A stretch of DNA of 64,000 nt, from the NCBI RefSeq assembly GCF_016026235.1, contig NZ_CP065613.1; one strand, 5' to 3'. The position numbers and the translations under genes were made by a program. Every line of letters starts with the position of its first letter. The stretch's first letter is position 1. Positions 1,871-16,833 of the stretch are shown one piece after another. Below the pieces are notes generated by a model. That model was given only the letters and a program-made list of their open reading frames with translations. It did not search any database and was not told the DNA's origin. Source of the DNA: Escherichia coli. GTDB taxonomy: Bacteria > Pseudomonadota > Gammaproteobacteria > Enterobacterales > Enterobacteriaceae.

Positions 1871-2998
1871 TTACTGCGGATATTCCTGCAATAAATTGTG
1901 TAATGCTTCCGCCATCAGCTCACCACGCCAGCCGGAAATCAGCTCCGGCAAATTGTTCTGCGGTTTCAGTTTCCAGTGCCAGTTCAGCAGTTGGTTGATT
2001 TGCCGACGCGATGCCAGCAATTCGGCGCTGATCTTATGCGTTTCGCTCACGTCAGTAATCAGCGACTTAATCGCTTTAAACGCTTTACGATAACCCGGCA
2101 TGTCCATCAGGTTAAGCATCGGCTGCGGTAAGGCATCTTCCGGCAATGTCTGCGCTTTTTCCACCAGCGCCAGCAGCGTTTTACCGTGAAAGCGGATTTC
2201 GCTACCGGATAAACCCAGGCTGTCCAGTTCGCCTAAACTTCCCGGCATATAACGCGCTACCGACCACAAATGCTCTTCACGCACGACAAAGTTCACCGCC
2301 AGATCGCGCTCTCGCGCCTTGCGCAGTCGCCAGTCGGCTAACAGTTGCAGACAGGCCAGTTGGCGTGTGCGTAATTGCCAGGCATTGGTGATATCACGCC
2401 AGGCATCTTCCGGCGCAACGACTTCCTGACGACGCATTTGCATCAGGCGGCATTCATCCAGCGCCGCAGGTAGCCAGCCGGAGGCCTCCGTTTCTACCAT
2501 AAGCTTGGCGGTGATCGGTAACAGATACCAGACATCCGCCGCTGCGTATTCACACTGACGTTCGGTCAGCGGTCTGGCCAGCCAGTCGGTGCGCGATTCA
2601 CTCTTGTCCAGCGTAACGCCGGAATACTCTTCCACCATGGAAGCGAAACCCCATGACATCGGGCGTCCGCAGAAGGCAGCAAGGATTTGCGTGTCAATCA
2701 AGGGTTGTGGTAATTCGCCAAAGACATTGAGGAACACTTCCAGATCTTCACTGCCTGCATGGAGAAATTTTGTGATGGACGGATCGCGCAGGATCGCTTT
2801 CAGCGGTGACCAGTCGGTGATCCCGAGAGGATCAATTAGCGCCAGATGCTCGCCATCGAAAAGTTGAATCAACCCCAGCTGCGGGTAATAAGTGCGCGTA
2901 CGAACAAATTCAGTATCCAGGGCTATCGCCGGAAAGGCACGGACGGCTTCACACAAAGAAGCCAGCGCATCGTCCGTGGTAATCATTTGGTAATTCAA
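1871..2998 (-). CDS. rnd: ribonuclease D
   Basis: 375-aa ORF recognised as RNase D (DTEFVRTRTYYPQLGLIQL motif region). Confidence 0.9.
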   Translation of the reverse strand: MNYQMITTDDALASLCEAVRAFPAIALDTEFVRTRTYYPQLGLIQLFDGEHLALIDPLGITDWSPLKAILRDPSITKFLHAGSEDLEVFLNVFGELPQPLIDTQILAAFCGRPMSWGFASMVEEYSGVTLDKSESRTDWLARPLTERQCEYAAADVWYLLPITAKLMVETEASGWLPAALDECRLMQMRRQEVVAPEDAWRDITNAWQLRTRQLACLQLLADWRLRKARERDLAVNFVVREEHLWSVARYMPGSLGELDSLGLSGSEIRFHGKTLLALVEKAQTLPEDALPQPMLNLMDMPGYRKAFKAIKSLITDVSETHKISAELLASRRQINQLLNWHWKLKPQNNLPELISGWRGELMAEALHNLLQEYPQ

Positions 2999-3022
2999 AT
3001 TGTTTTCTCTTTAGTGGGCGTC

Positions 3023-3050
3023 AAAAAAAACGCCGGATTAACCGGCGTCT
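3023..3050 (-). terminator. rho-independent terminator downstream of fadD
   Basis: hairpin cgccggattaaccggcg followed by a run of 8 T on the minus strand. Confidence 0.5.
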
Positions 3051-3067
3051 GACGACTGACTTAACGC

Positions 3068-4753
3068 TCAGGCTTTATTGTCCACTTTGCCGCGCGCTTC
3101 GTCACGTAATTCTCGTCGCAAAATTTTTCCGACGTTAGATTTCGGTAACTCATCACGAAACTCCACCAGCTTCGGTACTTTGTATCCCGTGAGCTGACGG
3201 CGGCAAAAAGTCACCAGTGACTCTTCGGTAAGCGATGGATCTTTTTTCACTACGAAGATTTTCACCGCTTCACCACTGGAGCCGGAAGGTACGCCAACAG
3301 CCGCGACTTCCTGTACGCCAGGATGCTGCATGACGACATCTTCAATCTCGTTGGGATAGACGTTAAAACCGGAAACCAGAATCATGTCTTTTTTACGATC
3401 GACAATGCGCAGGAATCCTTCTTCATCCATTACCGCGATGTCGCCGGTGTGTAACCAGCCATTTTTGATGATTTCATCGGTAGCATCGGGACGCTGCCAG
3501 TAACCCAGCATCACCTGCGGTCCTTTGACACAAAGCTCACCCGGTTGACCTGGTGGTACTTCATTATCATCATCATCCACCAGTTTGGCTTCCGTCGACG
3601 GCACCGGCAAACCGATGCTACCACTATGATAATCAATATCATATGGGTTAACGCTGACCAGCGGCGCACACTCGGTAAGGCCATAGCCTTCCAGCAGATA
3701 CTGTCCTGTCAGTTTCACCCAACGCTCTGCCACCACTTGCTGCACTGGCATCCCTCCGCCTGCGGAAAGATGCAGACTGGAGAAATCCAGCTGCTGGAAC
3801 TCTTTATTGTTCAGCAACGCATTGAACAAGGTGTTAACGCCCGTGATAGCGGTAAACGGATATTTCGCTAACTCTTTTACCAACCCTGGAATATCGCGCG
3901 GGTTAGTGATAAGCAGGTTCTGCCCACCCAGTTCGATAAACAGCAGGCAGTTAATGGTCAGGGCAAAAATGTGATACAGCGGCAGCGCCGTCACCACCAG
4001 CTCTTTGCCCGGATGCAACAGCGGACCATAGGTCGCGTTAACCTGTTCCAGGTTCGCCAGCATATTGCGGTGAGTCAGCATCGCGCCTTTCGCCACACCA
4101 GTGGTGCCGCCGGTGTATTGCAGAAAAGCTAAATCTTCCGGCACCAGTTCGGGTTTGACGTACTGCATCCGGTAGCCGTTATGCAGTGCGCTACGAAATG
4201 AAATGGCATCTGGCAGATGGTATTTCGGCACCAAACGCTTGATGTATTTAACAACGAAATTGACTACCGTGCCTTTTGCCGTAGATAGCTGATCGCCCAT
4301 ACGGGTCAGAATTACGTGCTGAACGGCGGTTTTATCAACCACTTTTTCCAGTGTGTGAGCAAAGTTAGACACGATAACAATCGCCGATGCGCCGCTATCG
4401 TTAAGCTGATGCTCAAGCTCACGCGGGGTATACAACGGGTTAACGTTTACGACGATCATCCCGGCACGCAAAATGCCAAACAGCGCCACCGGATATTGCA
4501 ATAAATTAGGCATCATCAACGCAACGCGATCGCCTTTCTTCAGCCCCAACCCTTGTTGCAAATAAGCGGCAAACGCGCGACTGCGTTCTTCCAGCTTGCG
4601 GAAGGTCATCACCTCCCCCATATTCACAAACGCAGGCTGATCGGCGTAGCGCGCGACCGACTGCTCAAACATATCTACCAGAGATTGATAACGGTCAGGG
4701 TTGATCTCCGTCGGAACGTCCGCGGGATAACGGTTAAGCCAAACCTTCTTCAA
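3068..4753 (-). CDS. fadD: long-chain fatty acid-CoA ligase FadD
   Basis: Protein recognised as FadD; annotated N-terminus MKKVWLNRY corresponds to a TTG start 22 codons inside the 583-aa track ORF. Confidence 0.9.
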
Positions 4754-4957
4754 TTCTTCACCTCTAAAATGCGTGTTCGTCGTCATCGCAACCCCAAATG
4801 ATATACATGCCGTTAACATAATATTAACTCATCATACCAGCTTGATAATTACCCAACGAAAAGGTTGCGAAGCGCGTCACTATTTATTTTTATCTTTACC
4901 GTAAGAATGCAGAAACAGCGGACCAGCCGCTGTTTCTTTTTCTTTAAAAACAAGCAA

Positions 4958-5539
4958 TTATTCAGTTACAACTGTTTGTACTCTCGCGGGGCCGGGATTA
5001 TACCAGCCCCATCCGCCGTAGCCATAGGGCCAGCCACGACCGCCATAAAACCATGGATCAATCGGCTGAGGCGGCATAATCACCTGCTGGGTTAAATGCC
5101 AACGTTTGTAACCCGTTACTTGCATCACCATAAATTTATAGGGCGTATTGCCGATTTTGCCGTCAACCGCACCAGTGATTGGCCCGACTACCGTAACCAG
5201 TTGTCCACGGAAATCCACCGGGTCCAGAAAACCGTTCACATCGGCATAAATGCGACCGCGAGAAGGTTCTCCCAGCGTCGGTCTGGCTCCGCTGTCCAGC
5301 GGTACGGTAGCAATTTCCAGGCGGGTTTTCCCTTGCTGGTTTTGTACCGCAACCACTTTGCCACCAAAGCGTGCCTCCTGACCAACGTACAGCTGCGGCG
5401 CACTCATCACCCGAACTAAATCTTGTTGCGGCGTGGGACTGCTGCCTTTAATGGCGTCCGGCACAGTGACACAACCGCTCAGCATTAGCGCAAACGTACC
5501 TGCCAGTATGCCTTTGATAACATTCTTTTGAACCGCCAT
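4958..5539 (-). CDS. yeaY: Slp-family outer membrane lipoprotein YeaY
   Basis: 193-aa ORF with lipoprotein signal (LSGC) and Gly/Trp/Tyr-rich C-terminus. Confidence 0.85.
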
Positions 5540-5578
5540 GATGCGACTCCTTTTTTTCTCAGGGCATACTCTTAAGAT

Positions 5579-6274
5579 TCATTCTTTGCCCGGAAGTTTC
5601 TTCCATGCGACGTTGTTACGTAAATAAACCGGTTCGGCATGTTCCACCGCCACCGTTTTACCCTCGGCAAACATCTGACAAGCAATCGGCAGCATATCTT
5701 CTGCAGCGGGGAGTAACACTTCGCCATCGCGCAAAACCAGCTCGCTCTCTTCACCGAGATCCGGCCAGGCTTGCCAGCCCGTCCCTACCGTCACCCATTC
5801 GCCGGAAAGCTGTTGCATTCGTTCATGAACGAGTTCGGGTTTGAGTACGGCTTCGGTTTCTTCACCGTGCCAGATACCGTTTTCATCACGCTGATATTCG
5901 GCCCAGTAAACTTCGCCCATTCGCGCGTCAATGGCTGACAGCACGCGTGTTGCGCCGTTTTTGCGCCACGCCCCTTGCGCCATCGTCATTAGCGTGGAGA
6001 CGCCAATCATCGGTAATTCCGCGCCAAGCGCCAGCCCTTGCGCGATGCCAATACCAATGCGCACGCCGGTAAAGCTACCGGGGCCGCGCCCGTAAGCCAG
6101 AGCGTTAATATCAGTCAGGGAAGTTCCGCTGGTGGTCAGGATATCCTGCACCATCGGTAAGATTCGTTGAGTATGTTCACGAGGGCAAAGCTCAAAATGA
6201 GCGTTGACAGTACCGTCGTTCCACAGGGCGACAGAGCAGGCCTCTGTCGCGGTATCGATAGCCAGAATTCGCAT
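5579..6274 (-). CDS. tsaB: tRNA threonylcarbamoyladenosine biosynthesis protein TsaB (YeaZ)
   Basis: 231-aa ORF recognised as TsaB. Confidence 0.9.
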
Positions 6275-6331
6275 GGGTCTTCGTGCTTAGATCAATAAAA
6301 AGGCGCGCATCATACCATACTCCGTAACAAA

Positions 6332-8242
6332 TTACCTGGAGGATGGTATCGCAAGGAAACGAACCGCACGGGCAATGTCACGGGTGCGCGGCGCGGGCGG
6401 CAGACTGGCGAGAAACGTCGCACCGTAAGGGCGCATCACCAGCCGATTATCGCAAATCACCAGCACGCCGCGATCATCGGCGTCGCGAATCAGTCGCCCT
6501 ACCCCCTGCTTGAGAGTAATCACCGCATCCGGCAGTTGTACTTCATCGAACGGGTCGCCACCGCGCAAACGGCAATCTTCCATGCGCGCTTTTAACAGTG
6601 GATCATCAGGAGAGGTAAACGGCAATTTGTCGATAATCACCAATGACAGCGTATCGCCACGCACGTCCACCCCTTCCCAGAAACTGCTGGTTGCCACAAG
6701 AAGCGCGTTACCGGCACTGACAAATTGCTGCAACAGTTGCCCTTTGCTGGTTTCCCCCTGCAATAATACGGGAAGTGTCATGGTAGCGCGGAACTGCTCG
6801 GCCAGATCGCGCATCATGGCGTGCGAGGTACAAAGCATAAAACAGCGACCGTTGTTAGCTTCGATGATCGGGCGCAGCATAGCCGCCAGTTGCCGCGCGG
6901 AACCCGGTTGATTGGTTTGCGGCAGGTTGCGCGGCACACAGAGTAACGCCTGGCGGCTGTAATCAAACGGGCTTGGCAATAGCAACGACTCCGCCTGTTC
7001 TATCCCAAGCCGCGAGGTGAAATGATGCAGATCGTCGTTCACCGACAGCGTTGCTGAGGTGAAGATCCAGCTACCGGGCTTTTGCGCCATTAACTCTTTG
7101 AATTTATCCGCCACGCTGAGCGGCGTGAGAGCCAGAGTAAAATGGCGCGAAGTGCATTCGTACCAGTAGCTGTAGCCCGGCTGATTGATCTCTTTTAGCC
7201 GCTTCAGCCGTGTGCGATACAACGTGGCGCGCTCAAATGCCGCATCCAGCAAGGCGGAACGCCCCAGTGACAGTTTCGCCACGTCATAACAAAGTTCCAG
7301 GGTGTCATCGAGCAGTAAAAATGCCCGCTGAATTTGCGGATTAGCTAACAGCTCACGCAGGTTACCGCGATAACCTGGCTCACCGAGTTGCAGACGAAAA
7401 TCCTGCGCACTCTGGGCAAGACGATCAGCGCACTTTTGTAACTGCTGGGTGTCTTTTAATTCGGTGCGGTAAGCGATGGTGATGTCTTTTGCCAGGTCGA
7501 GCAGTTGTCGACTGGAGAGTGACTGACCAAAATACTGGCTGGCAATGTCCGGTAGCTGGTGGGCTTCGTCGAAGATCATGACGTCCGCTTCCGGGATCAA
7601 CTCGCCAAATCCACTCTCTTTAACCACCATATCCGCTAGAAAGAGATGATGGTTTACCACCACCACATCGGCGTCCATCGCTTTTTTACGTGCTTTGACC
7701 ACAAAGCAATCTTTATACATCGGGCAGTCGCTGCCAAGACAGTTGTCGTTGGTGCTGGTGACCAGCGGCCACGCCTGTGAATCTTCCGCCACGCTGACGC
7801 AGGTGCTGATATCACCATCGACTGTTTGATTAGACCAGGAGCGCAGCAGGATCACATCGCTTAAGATTTGTACCGGCAGTTCGTCCCCCGCCAGCGCCTG
7901 CTGTTCGAGACGTTCAAGGCAGAGGTAGTTTGAGCGCCCTTTCAGCAGCGCCACGTTGCCCGTGTATTTCAACGCCTTTGAGACTGTTGGCAAATCGCGG
8001 CTGTAGAGCTGATCCTGCAACGCTTTTGAGCCGGTCGAGATAATGACTTTCTTTTTCGCCCGCAGCGCAGGAGCCAGGTAAGCGTAGGTTTTGCCCGTAC
8101 CGGTTCCTGCTTCCACCACCAGCGGCTGGCCTTTTTCTATCGCCTGGGTGACGGCTACCGCCATCTGTCGCTGTGGTTCTCGCGGCTTAAAGCCTGGTAT
8201 CGCTTTCGCCAGCTGACCGTCTGGTGCAAAATCGTCCGTCAC
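6332..8242 (-). CDS. yoaA: DinG-family ATP-dependent DNA helicase YoaA
   Basis: 636-aa ORF with helicase motifs (GTGKT Walker A, DEAH) and Fe-S cysteines. Confidence 0.85.
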   Translation of the reverse strand: MTDDFAPDGQLAKAIPGFKPREPQRQMAVAVTQAIEKGQPLVVEAGTGTGKTYAYLAPALRAKKKVIISTGSKALQDQLYSRDLPTVSKALKYTGNVALLKGRSNYLCLERLEQQALAGDELPVQILSDVILLRSWSNQTVDGDISTCVSVAEDSQAWPLVTSTNDNCLGSDCPMYKDCFVVKARKKAMDADVVVVNHHLFLADMVVKESGFGELIPEADVMIFDEAHQLPDIASQYFGQSLSSRQLLDLAKDITIAYRTELKDTQQLQKCADRLAQSAQDFRLQLGEPGYRGNLRELLANPQIQRAFLLLDDTLELCYDVAKLSLGRSALLDAAFERATLYRTRLKRLKEINQPGYSYWYECTSRHFTLALTPLSVADKFKELMAQKPGSWIFTSATLSVNDDLHHFTSRLGIEQAESLLLPSPFDYSRQALLCVPRNLPQTNQPGSARQLAAMLRPIIEANNGRCFMLCTSHAMMRDLAEQFRATMTLPVLLQGETSKGQLLQQFVSAGNALLVATSSFWEGVDVRGDTLSLVIIDKLPFTSPDDPLLKARMEDCRLRGGDPFDEVQLPDAVITLKQGVGRLIRDADDRGVLVICDNRLVMRPYGATFLASLPPAPRTRDIARAVRFLAIPSSR

Positions 8243-8373
8243 ACTACCCCCTGTTGATTTGAACAGGGATTATGTCAGGATGAGGGCGCTTTCGCCAGTT
8301 GAAGTGGTGACGGCGACCTCACATTGTGGCAGTCTTTGCAGCACGAAAATGGAAGTATAATGAGGACAAAATG

Positions 8374-8718
8374 ATGACTATCGTTCGTATCGATGCTGAA
8401 GCCCGCTGGTCTGATGTAGTAATCCACAACAACACGCTCTACTACACTGGTGTACCGGAAAACCTCGACGCCGATGCCTTTGAGCAAACCGCCAACACGC
8501 TGGCACAGATTGACGCCGTGCTGGAAAAACAGGGCAGCAATAAATCGAGCATTCTGGATGCCACCATTTTCCTGGCCGATAAAAACGACTTCGCGGCGAT
8601 GAATAAAGCGTGGGATGCCTGGGTTGTCGCGGGTCATGCGCCGGTGCGCTGCACGGTACAAGCGGGTTTGATGAACCCGAAGTATAAAGTTGAAATTAAG
8701 ATTGTGGCTGCGGTGTAA
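8374..8718 (+). CDS. yoaB: RidA/YjgF-family protein YoaB
   Basis: Recognised as YoaB; start taken at MTIVRIDAEARW inside the track ORF 8326..8718. Confidence 0.8.
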   Translation: MTIVRIDAEARWSDVVIHNNTLYYTGVPENLDADAFEQTANTLAQIDAVLEKQGSNKSSILDATIFLADKNDFAAMNKAWDAWVVAGHAPVRCTVQAGLMNPKYKVEIKIVAAV

Positions 8719-9113
8719 GCTTTATCGAAGCAAAATAAGTCAGACGATAATTTATCGATAATACTGGTCGGTTTTACATAAATCGACCAGAGAATAAGAT
8801 ATTACTGTTGATGCTTCTGCTAATTCATTATTTATATTTATAATTTCAATTTTATCTATAAAACTAACTATATAAATAAACATAAACATGCCGTTGTGTT
8901 CGCCCTTTGATTAGCAACTCTGGTTTTCTTTCTTAGCTGAACAATCTGGTTATAGCGTGCGGACTGACCGTTAATTTTCTCCATCTTACTGGATAACACA
9001 CCATGAACTGCTACTTTTAAAACACCTGAATGTCAACAGGTTAACTCGTGCCATATCGGGTGATGCTGCCAACTTACTGATTTAGTGTATGATGGTGTTT
9101 TTGAGGTGCTCCA

Positions 9114-9389
9114 GTGGCTTCTGTTTCTATCAGCTGTCCCTCCTGTTCAGCTACTGACGGGGTGGTGCGTAACGGCAAAAGCACCGCCGGACATCAGCGC
9201 TATCTCTGCTCTCACTGCCGTAAAACATGGCAACTGCAGTTCACTTACACCGCTTCTCAACCCGGTACGCACCAGAAAATCATTGATATGGCCATGAATG
9301 GCGTTGGATGCCGAGCAACTGCCCGCATTATGGGCGTTGGCCTCAACACGATTTTACGTCACTTAAAAAACTCAGGCCGCAGTCGGTAA
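9114..9389 (+). CDS. insA: IS1 InsA (transposition inhibitor / N-terminal part of InsAB' transposase)
   Basis: 91-aa [25 protein letters not shown]... Confidence 0.95.
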
Positions 9390-9811
9390 CCTCGCGCATA
9401 CAGCCGGGCAGTGACGTCATCGTCTGCGCGGAAATGGACGAACAGTGGGGCTATGTCGGGGCTAAATCGCGCCAGCGCTGGCTGTTTTACGCGTATGACA
9501 GTCTCCGGAAGACGGTTGTTGCGCACGTATTCGGTGAACGCACTATGGCGACGCTGGGGCGTCTTATGAGCCTGCTGTCACCCTTTGACGTGGTGATATG
9601 GATGACGGATGGCTGGCCGCTGTATGAATCCCGCCTGAAGGGAAAGCTGCACGTAATCAGCAAGCGATATACGCAGCGAATTGAGCGGCATAACCTGAAT
9701 CTGAGGCAGCACCTGGCACGGCTGGGACGGAAGTCGCTGTCGTTCTCAAAATCGGTGGAGCTGCATGACAAAGTCATCGGGCATTATCTGAACATAAAAC
9801 ACTATCAATAA
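9308..9811 (+). CDS. insB: IS1 insB reading frame (expressed as InsAB' transposase by -1 frameshift)
   Basis: 167-aa frame overlapping insA 3' end; AAAAAAC slippery motif near 9364. Confidence 0.9.
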
Positions 9812-9837
9812 GTTGGAGTCATTACCGGATTAGTGTG

Positions 9838-10017
9838 TTACTCGTCTTCATCCTCAAAACGCGCCACGATTCGCTCGCCGGAGTGGTTGGCACGCAGCTC
9901 TTCTGCCACCAGCGCGATTGCCTGGCCGCTGCTCATCCCTTGTGCCATCAGTTCCTGGATCCGCTCGACAGCTTTTTGCTGCTGTTCATGGGTGAGTGAA
10001 GGTAAACCTGCAAACAT
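9838..10017 (-). CDS. yoaH: small protein YoaH (UPF0181)
   Basis: Manual translation of minus strand gives [59 protein letters not shown]; below the track length cutoff. Confidence 0.85.
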
Positions 10018-10090
10018 TGTTAACTCCTGCTAAATTGTTGGCGCTAATTATTTCATGCTACCCGGCACATAGCCAGTAGAGTCAGGACTG

Positions 10091-11452
10091 ATGAAGACGT
10101 TATCTCCCGCTGTGATTACTTTACCCTGGCGTCAGGACGCCGCTGAATTTTATTTCTCCCGCTTAAGCCACCTGCCGTGGGCGATGCTTTTACACTCCGG
10201 CTATGCCGATCATCCGTATAGCCGCTTTGATATTGTGGTCGCCGATCCGATTTGCACTTTAACCACTTTAGGTAAAGAAACCATTGTTAGTGAAAGCGAA
10301 AAACGCACAACGACCACTGATGACCCGCTACAGGTGCTCCAGCAGGTGCTGGATCGCGCAGACATTCGCCCAACGCATAACGAAGATTTGCCATTTCAGG
10401 GCGGCGCACTGGGGTTGTTTGGCTACGATCTGGGCCGCCGTTTTGAGTCACTGCCAGAAATTGCGGAACAAGATATCGTTCTGCCGGATATGGCAGTGGG
10501 TATCTACGATTGGGCGCTCATTGTCGACCACCAGCGTCATACAGTTTCTTTGCTGAGTCATAATGATGTCAATGCCCGTCGGGCCTGGCTGGAAAGCCAG
10601 CAATTCTCGCCGCAGGAAGATTTCACGCTCACTTCCGACTGGCAATCCAATATGACCCGCGAGCAGTACGGCGAAAAATTTCGCCTGGTACAGGAATATC
10701 TGCACAGCGGTGATTGCTATCAGGTGAATCTCGCCCAGCGTTTTCATGCGACCTATTCTGGCGATGAATGGCAGGCATTCCTTCAGCTTAATCAGGCCAA
10801 CCGCGCGCCATTTAGCGCTTTTTTACGTCTTGAACAGGGTGCAATTTTAAGCCTTTCGCCAGAGCGGTTTATTCTTTGTGATAATAGTGAAATCCAGACC
10901 CGCCCGATTAAAGGCACGCTACCACGCCTGCCCGATCCTCAGGAAGATAGCAAACAAGCAGAAAAACTGGCGAACTCAGCGAAAGATCGTGCCGAAAATC
11001 TGATGATTGTCGATTTAATGCGTAATGATATCGGTCGTGTTGCCGTAGCCGGTTCGGTAAAAGTACCAGAGCTCTTCGTGGTGGAACCCTTCCCTGCCGT
11101 GCATCATCTGGTCAGCACTATAACGGCGCGACTACCAGAACAGTTACACGCCAGCGATCTGCTGCGCGCAGCTTTTCCTGGTGGCTCAATAACCGGGGCT
11201 CCGAAAGTACGGGCTATGGAAATTATCGACGAACTGGAACCGCAGCGACGTAATGCCTGGTGCGGCAGCATTGGCTATTTGAGCTTTTGCGGCAACATGG
11301 ATACCAGCATTACTATCCGCACGCTGACTGCCATTAACGGACAAATATACTGCTCTGCGGGCGGTGGAATTGTCGCCGATAGCCAGGAAGAAGCGGAATA
11401 TCAGGAAACTTTTGATAAAGTTAATAAGATATTACGCCAACTGGAGAAGTAA
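10091..11452 (+). CDS. pabB: aminodeoxychorismate synthase component I
   Basis: 453-aa ORF recognised as PabB. Confidence 0.9.
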   Translation: MKTLSPAVITLPWRQDAAEFYFSRLSHLPWAMLLHSGYADHPYSRFDIVVADPICTLTTLGKETIVSESEKRTTTTDDPLQVLQQVLDRADIRPTHNEDLPFQGGALGLFGYDLGRRFESLPEIAEQDIVLPDMAVGIYDWALIVDHQRHTVSLLSHNDVNARRAWLESQQFSPQEDFTLTSDWQSNMTREQYGEKFRLVQEYLHSGDCYQVNLAQRFHATYSGDEWQAFLQLNQANRAPFSAFLRLEQGAILSLSPERFILCDNSEIQTRPIKGTLPRLPDPQEDSKQAEKLANSAKDRAENLMIVDLMRNDIGRVAVAGSVKVPELFVVEPFPAVHHLVSTITARLPEQLHASDLLRAAFPGGSITGAPKVRAMEIIDELEPQRRNAWCGSIGYLSFCGNMDTSITIRTLTAINGQIYCSAGGGIVADSQEEAEYQETFDKVNKILRQLEK

Positions 11453-11455
11453 GAC

Positions 11456-12034
11456 GTGGAATACCGTAGCCTGACGCTTGATGATTTTTTATCGCGCTTT
11501 CAACTTTTGCGCCCGCAAATTAACCGGGAAACCCTAAATCATCGTCAGGCTGCCGTGTTAATCCCCATCGTCCGTCGACCGCAACCGGGGTTGTTGCTGA
11601 CTCAGCGTTCAATTCATCTGCGTAAACACGCTGGACAAGTGGCATTCCCTGGAGGTGCAGTCGATGACACGGACGCATCAGTTATCGCCGCCGCGCTGCG
11701 CGAAGCTGAAGAAGAGGTCGCTATACCGCCTTCCGCCGTTGAAGTTATCGGCGTGCTGCCGCCCGTCGATAGCGTAACTGGCTATCAGGTAACCCCAGTG
11801 GTCGGCATTATCCCGCCCGATCTGCCGTATCGCGCCAGTGAAGATGAAGTCTCGGCGGTGTTTGAAATGCCGCTCGCCCAGGCATTACATCTGGGTCGTT
11901 ATCACCCTTTAGATATCTACCGCCGTGGCGATTCACATCGGGTATGGCTGTCCTGGTACGAACAGTATTTTGTATGGGGAATGACCGCAGGCATAATTCG
12001 TGAGCTGGCGCTGCAAATTGGTGTGAAACCCTGA
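11456..12034 (+). CDS. nudL: CoA pyrophosphohydrolase NudL (Nudix)
   Basis: 192-aa ORF with Nudix box ([22 protein letters not shown]). Confidence 0.85.
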
Positions 12035-12217
12035 CTATACTTATCTTTACATCTACAAAACACTACTTGAGACAATCATCGCAATATTAGTTAAATCGCG
12101 GTTTTTGATTAGTTTAATTCATGTGAATAGTTAAGCCAGTCGCCGCGTTCCCTCTTACACTATGCGCTGTTATTAGTTCGTTACTGGAAGTCCAGTCACC
12201 TTGTCAGGAGTATTATC

Positions 12218-13582
12218 GTGATTAGTCTATTCGACATGTTTAAGGTGGGGATTGGTCCCTCATCTTCCCATACCGTAGGGCCTATGAAGGCGGGTAAACA
12301 GTTCGTCGATGATCTGGTCGAAAAAGGCTTACTGGATAGCGTTACTCGCGTTGCCGTGGACGTTTATGGTTCACTGTCGCTGACGGGTAAAGGCCACCAC
12401 ACCGATATCGCCATTATTATGGGTCTTGCAGGTAACGAACCTGCCACCGTGGATATCGACAGTATTCCCGGTTTTATTCGCGACGTAGAAGAGCGCGAAC
12501 GTCTGCTGCTGGCACAGGGACGGCATGAAGTGGATTTCCCGCGCGACAACGGGATGCGTTTTCATAACGGCAACCTGCCGCTGCATGAAAACGGTATGCA
12601 AATCCACGCCTATAACGGCGATGAAGTCGTCTACAGCAAAACTTATTATTCCATCGGCGGCGGTTTTATCGTCGATGAAGAACACTTTGGTCAGGATGCT
12701 GCCAACGAAGTGAGCGTGCCGTATCCGTTCAAATCTGCCACCGAACTGCTCGCGTACTGTAATGAAACCGGCTATTCGCTGTCTGGTCTCGCTATGCAGA
12801 ACGAACTGGCGCTGCACAGCAAGAAAGAGATCGACGAGTATTTCGCGCATGTCTGGCAAACCATGCAGGCATGTATCGATCGCGGGATGAACACCGAAGG
12901 TGTACTGCCAGGCCCGCTGCGCGTGCCACGTCGTGCGTCTGCCCTGCGCCGGATGCTGGTTTCCAGCGATAAACTGTCTAACGATCCGATGAATGTCATT
13001 GACTGGGTAAACATGTTTGCGCTGGCAGTTAACGAAGAAAACGCCGCCGGTGGTCGTGTGGTAACTGCGCCAACCAACGGTGCCTGCGGTATCGTTCCGG
13101 CAGTGCTGGCTTACTATGACCACTTTATTGAATCGGTCAGCCCGGACATCTATACCCGTTACTTTATGGCAGCGGGCGCGATTGGTGCATTGTATAAAAT
13201 GAACGCCTCTATTTCCGGTGCGGAAGTTGGTTGCCAGGGCGAAGTGGGTGTTGCCTGTTCAATGGCTGCTGCGGGTCTTGCAGAACTGCTGGGCGGTAGC
13301 CCGGAACAGGTTTGCGTGGCGGCGGAAATTGGCATGGAACACAACCTTGGTTTAACCTGCGACCCGGTTGCAGGGCAGGTTCAGGTGCCGTGCATTGAGC
13401 GTAATGCCATTGCCTCTGTGAAGGCGATTAACGCCGCACGGATGGCTCTGCGCCGCACCAGTGCACCGCGCGTCTCGCTGGATAAGGTCATCGAAACGAT
13501 GTACGAAACCGGTAAGGACATGAACGCCAAATACCGCGAAACCTCACGCGGTGGTCTGGCAATCAAAGTCCAGTGTGACTAA
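12218..13582 (+). CDS. sdaA: L-serine dehydratase 1
   Basis: 454-aa ORF recognised as SdaA; GTG start. Confidence 0.9.
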
Positions 13583-15311: not shown

Positions 15312-15377
15312 CGCTGATATGACTTTCCGTGTCAAACCGGAATCTCTAATTTTGACGATTTTCTTTTTAGGTTTAAT

Positions 15378-15562
15378 TCCCTGAGGGCGACGTAGCAGTA
15401 AATCCGACGGTGAATCACGCTGATATTCGCGGGTTGGATACCGCATTACAGAGGTCCGTCATATGAGCCTGCCACTTTCTTACGTCGCGAATCAGCTTTG
15501 TTCCGCCGTCGCCAAGCGCTAACGTGGGTTACTCTTGTACTGGGCTACGTCGCCTTCAGGGA
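15378..15562. repeat. 19-bp imperfect inverted repeat pair (18/19) in the 3' non-coding end of the IS110-family element
   Basis: TCCCTGAGGGCGACGTAGC at 15378..15396 and GCTACGTCGCCTTCAGGGA at 15544..15562. Confidence 0.7.
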
Positions 15563-15618
15563 ACTGGTTATTCTCATTTTTTATTTGTGACATTGTGGTT
15601 GTTGTGCGACAGACATTG

Positions 15619-16707
15619 CTATTCGGCCCATATCCCAGATAAAACCCGCCAGCTCACGTGCAACAGCAACAATTGTAATATTGACATTCTTTCCTTTGGC
15701 CTGAAGTTTTCGATACCTCTTACAAAGCCTGAGTTGAGCATCCCATGCTCTGTCAATGACGGGGCGGGGTAAATTTTCCTGCCTTTTTGTATTGCCGGAC
15801 TGATGCGTGCCGGATGACGGTAACTCCACGCTGCCTCGACCAATAGCTTTCTGGCATAGCTGTTTCCGGCTTTGGTAATGCTGCCCTGATGTCTGCTTCC
15901 ACCCGATGAATATTCTGATGGCGTGATACCAAACCATGACATCAGTTGTCGTGGATGTTCAAAACGGGTCAGATCACCCAGTTCAGAAATTAATCCAACC
16001 GCAGTAATAAACTGAATCCCTCGCATGGCTTGCAGCGCCTCTACTACCGGATACAGCCTCCATTCGGTAACGGCCTCCTTCAGGGCGGATTCCAGCCGTT
16101 CACATTGTGCCTGCCGGTCTTCTATTGTACGACGGTGTTCGTCAAAAGCTAATTGTCGCCAGGGACTTTCGAATGAGTATTTGCTGAGCCAGCGTCGGTG
16201 TGCAGGGCCCCAATCTGCTCGCCCGACATAATGGACCCCATGAACCAGAAGAAACGATTTCAGACGTTGCCTTGCATGCCGTAAATCATCGCGGGCAGAT
16301 GCCCATGCCCGGGCCAAATCCCGGAATGCCTCATCTTCAATGCCGGGTACGTAGACAGCAGAAAGATCTCCTGCACGCAGTGAACGCACAAGTCTGATGG
16401 CATCACGGCGATCGGTTTTAACCCGCTCCCCCGGTTTTTTCGGGATAAGTGAGGGGGCGCAGACCATGCAGTCAAAACCGGATTTCACCAGCCGACGATA
16501 AAGTCCATAACCACAGGGCCCCGCTTCATAAACGATACTGACCTGCGATGACTTTGACCTGAGACGTTTACAAAGATTCTGAATATCAGTAGGTGATGTG
16601 CCAATTTTACCCATCAGTTCAACAGGTTCTGAATTGATAGCATAAGCGACAGTAATCGATTCTTTGTGAACATCTAACCCGACGTACAATGTGTTATTGT
16701 TGTTCAT
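15619..16707 (-). CDS. IS110-family transposase (DEDD RuvC-like N-terminal domain, IS116/IS110/IS902 C-terminal domain)
   Basis: N-terminus MNNNNTLYVGLDVHKESITVAYA and C-terminal ITAVGLISELGD...GITPSEYSSGGS...KAGNSYARKLL motifs; start taken at M17 of the 378-aa track ORF. Confidence 0.8.
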   Translation of the reverse strand: MNNNNTLYVGLDVHKESITVAYAINSEPVELMGKIGTSPTDIQNLCKRLRSKSSQVSIVYEAGPCGYGLYRRLVKSGFDCMVCAPSLIPKKPGERVKTDRRDAIRLVRSLRAGDLSAVYVPGIEDEAFRDLARAWASARDDLRHARQRLKSFLLVHGVHYVGRADWGPAHRRWLSKYSFESPWRQLAFDEHRRTIEDRQAQCERLESALKEAVTEWRLYPVVEALQAMRGIQFITAVGLISELGDLTRFEHPRQLMSWFGITPSEYSSGGSRHQGSITKAGNSYARKLLVEAAWSYRHPARISPAIQKGRKIYPAPSLTEHGMLNSGFVRGIENFRPKERMSILQLLLLHVSWRVLSGIWAE

Positions 16708-16833
16708 GCTGGCCTCCGTGGTGGAAATACCGGGGTGTAGCAACAGCTCACCCATGCGGCTCTGACAACGATGTTAACCCGCGTTAAATATCCCACGTTG
16801 GCCAGCATCTGTCTCACGGAAAGTCATACTGCC

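Follow-up and report, generated by a model that had tools for sequence, protein, structure and literature searches.

An intact IS1 copy marks a 489-bp deletion that includes yoaC between yoaB and yoaH of Escherichia coli

Adjacent deletions promoted by IS1 are reportedly known from the classical gal-region deletions of Reif and Saedler (1975), and replicative deletions by IS1 are said to have been described by Turlan and Chandler (1995). The locus described here lies in a 64-kb stretch of Escherichia coli DNA (the window), where a copy of IS1 stands between yoaB and yoaH. It resembles the classical cases in that the element is intact, the deletion runs from an IS1 end, no target duplication is present and the endpoint falls within AT-rich DNA close by. 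It differs from them in that only the product is seen, and in that a deletion of small size, 489 bp, has become fixed in a clone of enteroinvasive E. coli (EIEC) found in nature instead of having been selected in the laboratory. A second likeness is to the IS-mediated genome reduction of Shigella and EIEC (Hawkey et al. 2020, PMC7373316), with which the locus shares an IS-expanded enteroinvasive host and an IS-associated gene loss; the window carries both IS1 and ISSso6. The portion of that paper on which we draw does not name yoaC among the losses, and an adaptive loss is without support. The IS150 deletions of the Lenski long-term lines, as treated in excerpts of PMC11708052, are similar in joining an IS to a deletion, in lacking a duplication and in being read as adjacent deletions, but IS150 belongs to the IS3 family, uses another transposition chemistry, and its events were dated in real time. 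The 489-bp yoaC deletion allele was not described in the literature that we searched for yoaC with IS1. The deletion is a textbook product of IS1 activity, involving no new mechanism and representing no new kind of thing; its value is as a clean and fully resolved example in which a missing IS1 duplication correctly predicted a hidden deletion.

The genes on both sides of the element are intact. On the left is yoaB (8374-8718, plus strand; RidA/L-PSP family, Pfam PF01042, E 3.9e-31), which is annotated under that name in the reference genomes, and on the right is the coding sequence of yoaH (9838-10017, minus strand; UPF0181, 59 aa, Pfam PF03701, E 2.8e-29). Between yoaB and the element there is only a very AT-rich tract of 340 bp (8719-9058), as an earlier note on this DNA had described, with a GC content of 0.335 against a mean of 0.505 for the window and with longest open reading frames of 45 and 43 aa. 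This tract maps to positions 2501-2840 of the corresponding locus of strain FDAARGOS_943 (L001, the coordinate system used below). Among 5426 complete E. coli genomes, 5357 contain at least 80% of its length, and in each of these it is unannotated intergenic DNA downstream of yoaB. The tract is not foreign DNA, but the conserved left part of the 421-bp spacer between yoaB and yoaC.

The element itself, IS1 copy A, occupies positions 9059-9826 on the plus strand and is a structurally intact copy of 768 bp. Its termini read GGTGATGCTGCCAACTTACTGAT on the left and ...ATCAATAAGTTGGAGTCATTACC on the right, and its inverted repeats are found at 9059-9081 (IRL, GGTGATGCTGCCAACTTACTGAT) and 9804-9826 (IRR, GGTAATGACTCCAACTTATTGAT as the reverse complement), satisfying the length and the imperfect terminal inverted repeats of approximately 23 bp of the IS1 family. 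The open reading frame of insA extends from 9114 to 9389 on the plus strand and translates to 91 aa, and the insB' frame (9308-9811, plus strand) is entered from insA through a -1 frameshift, for which the A6C motif (TTAAAAAAC) is present at 9363-9371; RefSeq annotates a programmed frameshift in near-identical IS1 copies. The domains expected of IS1, read on the identical genes of another locus (L018), are also present (Pfam Zn_ribbon_InsA, HTH_Tnp_IS1 and DDE_Tnp_IS1; PF03811, PF12759 and PF03400). Copy A is 99.7% identical to the second IS1 of the window, copy B (40000-40767), with 2 differing positions, and 99.5% identical, with 4 differences, to an IS1 of strain BL12 that RefSeq assigns to the IS1A family; all of the differences from these two copies fall between positions 256 and 304. 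Copy A is thus an ordinary IS1A-type copy.

A target duplication of 8-9 bp is a hallmark of IS1 (PMC12428005), and the 8-9-bp direct duplication is absent around copy A. The 9-mer to its left, GCCATATCG (9050-9058), and that to its right, GGATTAGTG (9827-9835), differ from one another, as the earlier note had reported. The two flanks fail to match because the 489-bp deletion removed the DNA between them. The duplication marks a simple insertion event and not the element, so copy A still counts as IS1 in its absence. The left 9-mer is the IS1 target at the left junction, the deletion starting directly after it (L001 2841), and depending on the route it may be either the original insertion site or the endpoint of the deletion. 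The right 9-mer is identical to the complete 9-bp IS1 duplication found in BL12.

We mapped the deletion on two references, the near-isogenic FDAARGOS_943 (L001) and the K-12-like CIT (L002). Both have the gene order yoaA, yoaB, yoaC (99 codons), yoaH and pabB, with yoaC at the place where the earlier note, recalling a gene of about 99 codons, had expected it. By exact flank mapping, the DNA left of IS1 matches as far as L001 2840 and the DNA right of it from L001 3330 onward; positions 2841-3329, or 489 bp, are missing from the window. The same answer was obtained with both references, and the limits of the deletion coincide to the base with the two IS1 ends. The earlier note had named a complete junction, or a yoaC located elsewhere, as findings that would speak against a loss of DNA; the K-12-type alignment gave instead missing sequence at the junction and yoaC at this position. 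The lost segment consists of 81 bp upstream of yoaC (GC 0.26), the 300-bp yoaC (L001 2922-3221) and 108 bp downstream. The gene, annotated as yoaC, encodes a 99-aa protein with a DUF1889 domain (Pfam PF08986, E 4.8e-48), and neither the 489-bp segment nor a YoaC-like protein was found elsewhere in the 64-kb window by blastn and tblastn. Because this result comes from direct comparison with references and not from a statistical pattern, chance is not at issue. The intact IS1 marks a real chromosomal deletion of 489 bp that includes yoaC, and the absence of the gene is a real loss and not a failure of gene calling, a distinction relevant to annotation. The earlier note's proposal, that yoaC was removed either by an adjacent deletion due to IS1 or by recombination of one IS1 copy with another, is supported by these data.

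yoaC and yoaH are convergent, and the 108 bp lost from downstream of yoaC include the sole strong hairpin that lies between them. Its stem is 11 bp long (AGGACGCTTTT / AAAAGCGTCCT), its folding energy is about -16 kcal/mol, and the hairpin is followed by a T-run on the yoaC-sense strand only. Note that direct folding was used for its detection; the consensus terminator scan missed the hairpin because its 11-nt loop exceeds the limit of the scan. No RNA families were found in the yoaB-yoaH interval with Rfam. The earlier note had also raised the possibility that the 3' region of yoaH was affected, and this is the case: the yoaH stop codon (9838-9840) lies 11 bp from the end of IS1 at 9826, and the native 108 bp with the hairpin are replaced by the IS1 right end. 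The arrangement implies that yoaH now converges on insB', their stop codons standing 26 nt apart and the native downstream hairpin gone, and that a yoaH transcript would run into the IS1 right end after 11 nt, antisense to insB'. A further predicted consequence is that YoaC, a protein without a known function, is no longer made.

The deletion allele was then placed within its lineage. FDAARGOS_943 carries ipaH3, IS600, IS1 and ISSso6 and is therefore of the enteroinvasive type. Compared with the window, it shows 3 mismatches in the 9,058 bp left of the IS1; on the right side it is identical over 2000 of 2000 bp, with 3 mismatches in 5,490 bp and 15 in 23,105 bp. It has yoaC and has no IS1 at yoaB-yoaH. 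The YoaA proteins of the two differ by G120D, the window having D120, and a look-up of the D120 variant returned 23 contigs. One of these, JTCO01000124.1, is identical to window positions 2332-12242 over 9,911 bp, both IS1 junctions included; it comes from an independent Illumina assembly of strain 4608-58, published as the draft genome of an EIEC O143:H26 isolate (PMC4319576). The other four contexts of the variant, representing about 19 draft assemblies, read gccatatcg and then ggtgatgctg..., their contigs breaking inside IS1. The left junction is common to all 5 of the inspected contexts, which stand for approximately 20 of the 23 contigs, and yoaC lies next to yoaB in no inspected contig with the D120 variant. 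A corresponding look-up with PabB met a variant that was too widespread (1,517 blocks), and the contexts it returned were only yoaC-intact or had other IS1 insertions. The presence of the same left junction across the inspected D120 contexts indicates that the deletion allele is fixed in the clone, and the near-identity of FDAARGOS_943, with yoaC and without the IS1, indicates that the deletion is recent and lineage-specific. These comparisons place the origin of the allele after the split of the 4608-58 clone from FDAARGOS_943.

The exact structure was found in 0 of the 5,426 complete RefSeq E. coli genomes, and with a 240-bp query across the left junction none of them had an IS1 abutting GCCATATCG; the full-length matches in these genomes are IS1 insertions elsewhere in the yoaB-yoaH interval. 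Three sequences, namely the left junction, the right junction and a hypothetical intermediate with a duplicated GCCATATCG, were sought in GTDB species representatives and in JGI metagenomes and gave 0 exact matches, and no intermediate with a single IS1 and an intact yoaC turned up in the lineage of the window. The deletion allele fits with the published expansion of IS elements in EIEC and Shigella, as described in the consulted part of that work (PMC7373316). To the genome decay that IS elements drive in enteroinvasive E. coli it contributes a further small gene loss, and with its two junction sequences it is usable as a clonal marker that separates the 4608-58 lineage from FDAARGOS_943.

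The right junction of copy A has a counterpart in duck isolates. A 240-bp query across this junction matched in a single piece, 240 of 240 bp, in duck isolates BL12 and GS04, and BHD6 showed the same full-length match pattern. In BL12 (L005) an IS1 stands between two copies of GGATTAGTG (L001 3330-3338), in the same orientation as in the window and with yoaC intact upstream, demonstrating that GGATTAGTG is a site of simple IS1 insertion. The BL12/GS04 insertion is thus like the window in its right junction, which agrees to the base, in its orientation and in its IS1. BL12 is unlike the window in that the 9-bp duplication is found at each side of its IS1 and yoaC is intact. Over 686 bp of left flank, BL12 and the window differ by one gap and 16 mismatches, whereas FDAARGOS_943, without this IS1, is identical to the window on the right, and the two insertions at GGATTAGTG are therefore independent. 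Since the endpoint of a deletion would be picked by the same transposase as an insertion site, the BL12 insertion does not tell which junction of copy A is the older one.

IS1 insertions are a recurrent feature of the yoaB-yoaH interval, which has a GC content of 0.369. In other strains we found at least 10 distinct IS1 insertion sites within approximately 700 bp (L001 2501-3340), from a survey of loci L003, L004, L005, L008, L011, L013, L023, L028 and L031-L034. All sites are given in L001 coordinates, and were read from the sequence unless described as by span, in which case they were inferred from match spans. Insertions lie at 2643-2651 (duplication aaactaact; L031), at 2853-2861 (duplication tgatattag; strain X14-3) and at 2865-2872 (caaattaa), this last 8-bp site having been used in both orientations (plus in PigCaeca_1 and 98212, minus in L008, L011 and L013). 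They are followed by insertions at approximately 2884-2892 (MB51, by span), at 3001-3008 (duplication aaagcacg; L028 and L031), at approximately 3151-3159 (HS, by span) and 3214-3222 (TW14425, by span), and by the BL12 insertion at 3330-3338 (duplication ggattagtg). Further positions are implied by the match spans of CX12, DAM/ANT and 2017.18.04CC, and strain PT62 is reported to carry Tn6330 and IS1 between yoaB and yoaC (PMC9045152). L031 has two IS1 copies in the interval, inverted relative to each other.

Deletions have also occurred in this interval more than once. The complete genome of STEC276 has an IS1-flanked, duplication-free deletion of 164 bp inside yoaC, its flanks ending at 3000 and resuming at 3165, and two loci on megabase-scale contigs (L023 and L032) have an IS1-flanked, duplication-free deletion of 698 bp that removes yoaC, with flanks ending at 2539 and resuming at 3238 and with the IS1 in the orientation opposite to copy A. 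These are found in unrelated strains and are independent events. The AT-rich yoaB-yoaH interval is thereby documented as a recurrent landing and deletion site of IS1. IS1 prefers AT-rich targets, and the simplest reason for the clustering is this preference together with the low GC content and the apparent dispensability of yoaC. It is in our view very improbable that the recurrent hits and the three deletions (489, 164 and 698 bp) arose because losing YoaC, or changing the expression of yoaH, was selected for; were this so, yoaC would be a recurrently lost gene that is a condition-dependent liability.

For the origin of the 489-bp deletion we favor a simple IS1 insertion followed by an adjacent deletion mediated by the IS1 transposase, a reading to which we assign a probability of roughly 0.55. 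According to this model, IS1 would first have entered one of the two flanking 9-mers by ordinary transposition. The element would then have transposed replicatively within the same molecule, attacking a 9-bp target close by in the AT-rich spacer so that its other end became joined to GCCATATCG; the intervening segment would have been excised as a circle that included a second IS1 copy, with one IS1 retained in the chromosome. Such a route predicts an intact IS, a deletion that starts exactly at the IS end and the absence of a duplication, and these hallmarks are all present here. The right junction equals that of a simple insertion with duplication in BL12, but BL12 is of an unrelated background. 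The order of events, the identity of the original junction and a deletion step driven by transposase and not by RecA are matters that we infer. Adjacent deletion is favored because it requires two events as against three for recombination between two IS1 copies, because deletion alleles with a single IS1 recur at the locus, and because neither an intermediate with two IS1 copies in direct orientation nor an insertion at GCCATATCG was found in the 5,426 genomes or the metagenomes.

The most serious alternative is that two direct IS1 insertions, one duplicating GCCATATCG and the other GGATTAGTG, were followed by RecA-dependent recombination between the 768-bp copies, removing one IS1, the 489 bp and two of the duplication copies. 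Missing duplications have been attributed to adjacent deletions or to recombination between IS copies in the section of PMC11708052 used here, and recombination is a standard explanation for them in the excerpts of PMC11708052 and PMC7373316 that we draw on. This alternative predicts exactly the junctions observed, and the junctions cannot separate it from adjacent deletion because both predict GCCATATCG-IS1-GGATTAGTG with L001 2841-3329 missing. GGATTAGTG is documented as a duplication in BL12, the host lineage is part of the EIEC/Shigella group, in which IS elements have expanded, and the interval, with its ten or more sites, is a strong IS1 target that in L031 is doubly occupied; this hotspot character and the double occupancy keep recombination realistic. 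Against it are the three events required, the presence of IS1 at GCCATATCG in 0 of 5,426 genomes, and a metagenome scan for the intermediate that returned nothing. The two copies in L031 are inverted and at other sites, and no double direct IS1 was found. Copy A also carries no chimeric signature, but this comparison has low power, the copies compared differing by only 0-4 bases; the IS1 copies of this genome differ by 0-2 bases, so that a recombinant IS1 would be invisible. The earlier note had proposed a search of other IS1 copies for matching half-duplications, and the other IS1 of the window, copy B, does not carry them, having a complete duplication of its own. Copy B was accordingly rejected as the recombination partner of copy A, its flanks also being unrelated. 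Taken together, we regard recombination between two copies as a possible origin, to be held tentatively.

An origin in one step, with IS1 integrated during the formation or repair of the deletion and without staggered cleavage of the target, would account for the missing duplication and for the lack of an intermediate in the lineage, and one-step events have been proposed for some IS5 and IS481 cases (PMC11708052, in the part consulted). In that same part, all of the IS-plus-deletion events of the long-term evolution experiment can be classed as adjacent deletions. The right junction of copy A is a canonical IS1 site that bears a 9-bp duplication in BL12, which points to ordinary target choice by the transposase, and there is no direct evidence for a one-step mechanism in IS1; we consider such an origin unlikely. 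An assembly artefact, in which two IS1 copies of a true yoaB-IS1-yoaC-IS1-yoaH arrangement were collapsed into one, might be imagined from the multicopy nature of IS1 and from the breaking of short-read assemblies of this lineage at IS1, but is scarcely credible, given that the window is contiguous through three IS elements over 64 kb, suggesting long-read or finished sequence, that the independent 4608-58 assembly gives an identical join, that the flanks are the expected syntenic neighbors, and that the analogous single-IS1 deletions in STEC276, L023 and L032 indicate that the structure is biologically ordinary.

Several observations were made elsewhere in the window and in FDAARGOS_943. Copy B is flanked on both sides by a 16-bp direct repeat, CATTAATGCAGGCTTA (window 39984-40783). 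In E. coli PS10-3, where the site is unoccupied, the 16-mer is present as a single copy (L016 1501-1516), indicating that it is a true 16-bp target duplication, much exceeding the 8-9 bp usual for IS1. We considered whether the repeat could be a prophage att remnant and rejected this origin, the att core of FDAARGOS_943 being different and about 46 bp away. The overlapping antisense sRNA genes SraC/RyeA (plus strand) and SdsR/RyeB (minus strand, 39907-40012), identified with Rfam between pphA and yebY, are interrupted by copy B (window 39903-40049 and 40732-40831). The insertion probably cuts SdsR off from its promoter and divides RyeA in two. In FDAARGOS_943 the sdsR/ryeA locus is occupied by a prophage of about 47 kb (NZ_CP065615.1 825438-873012) that contains IS600 and IS1 together with an integrase, four tRNA genes and ipaH3, the gene of a T3SS effector; the window lacks this prophage and has an empty attachment site at 39937/39938.

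The window also contains a 1,517-bp copy of ISSso6 (IS110 family; Pfam DEDD_Tnp_IS110 and Transposase_20) at 15316-16832, exactly at the yoaE/pdeD boundary. This element is absent from the yoaE/pdeD site of FDAARGOS_943, which has 16 copies elsewhere, and only 125 of the 5,426 E. coli genomes contain ISSso6. The contig of 4608-58 seems to start approximately 52 bp inside ISSso6, suggesting that the insertion is common to 4608-58. In FDAARGOS_943, rlmA is annotated as a pseudogene with an internal stop (NZ_CP065615.1 889084-889893, syntenic with the window).
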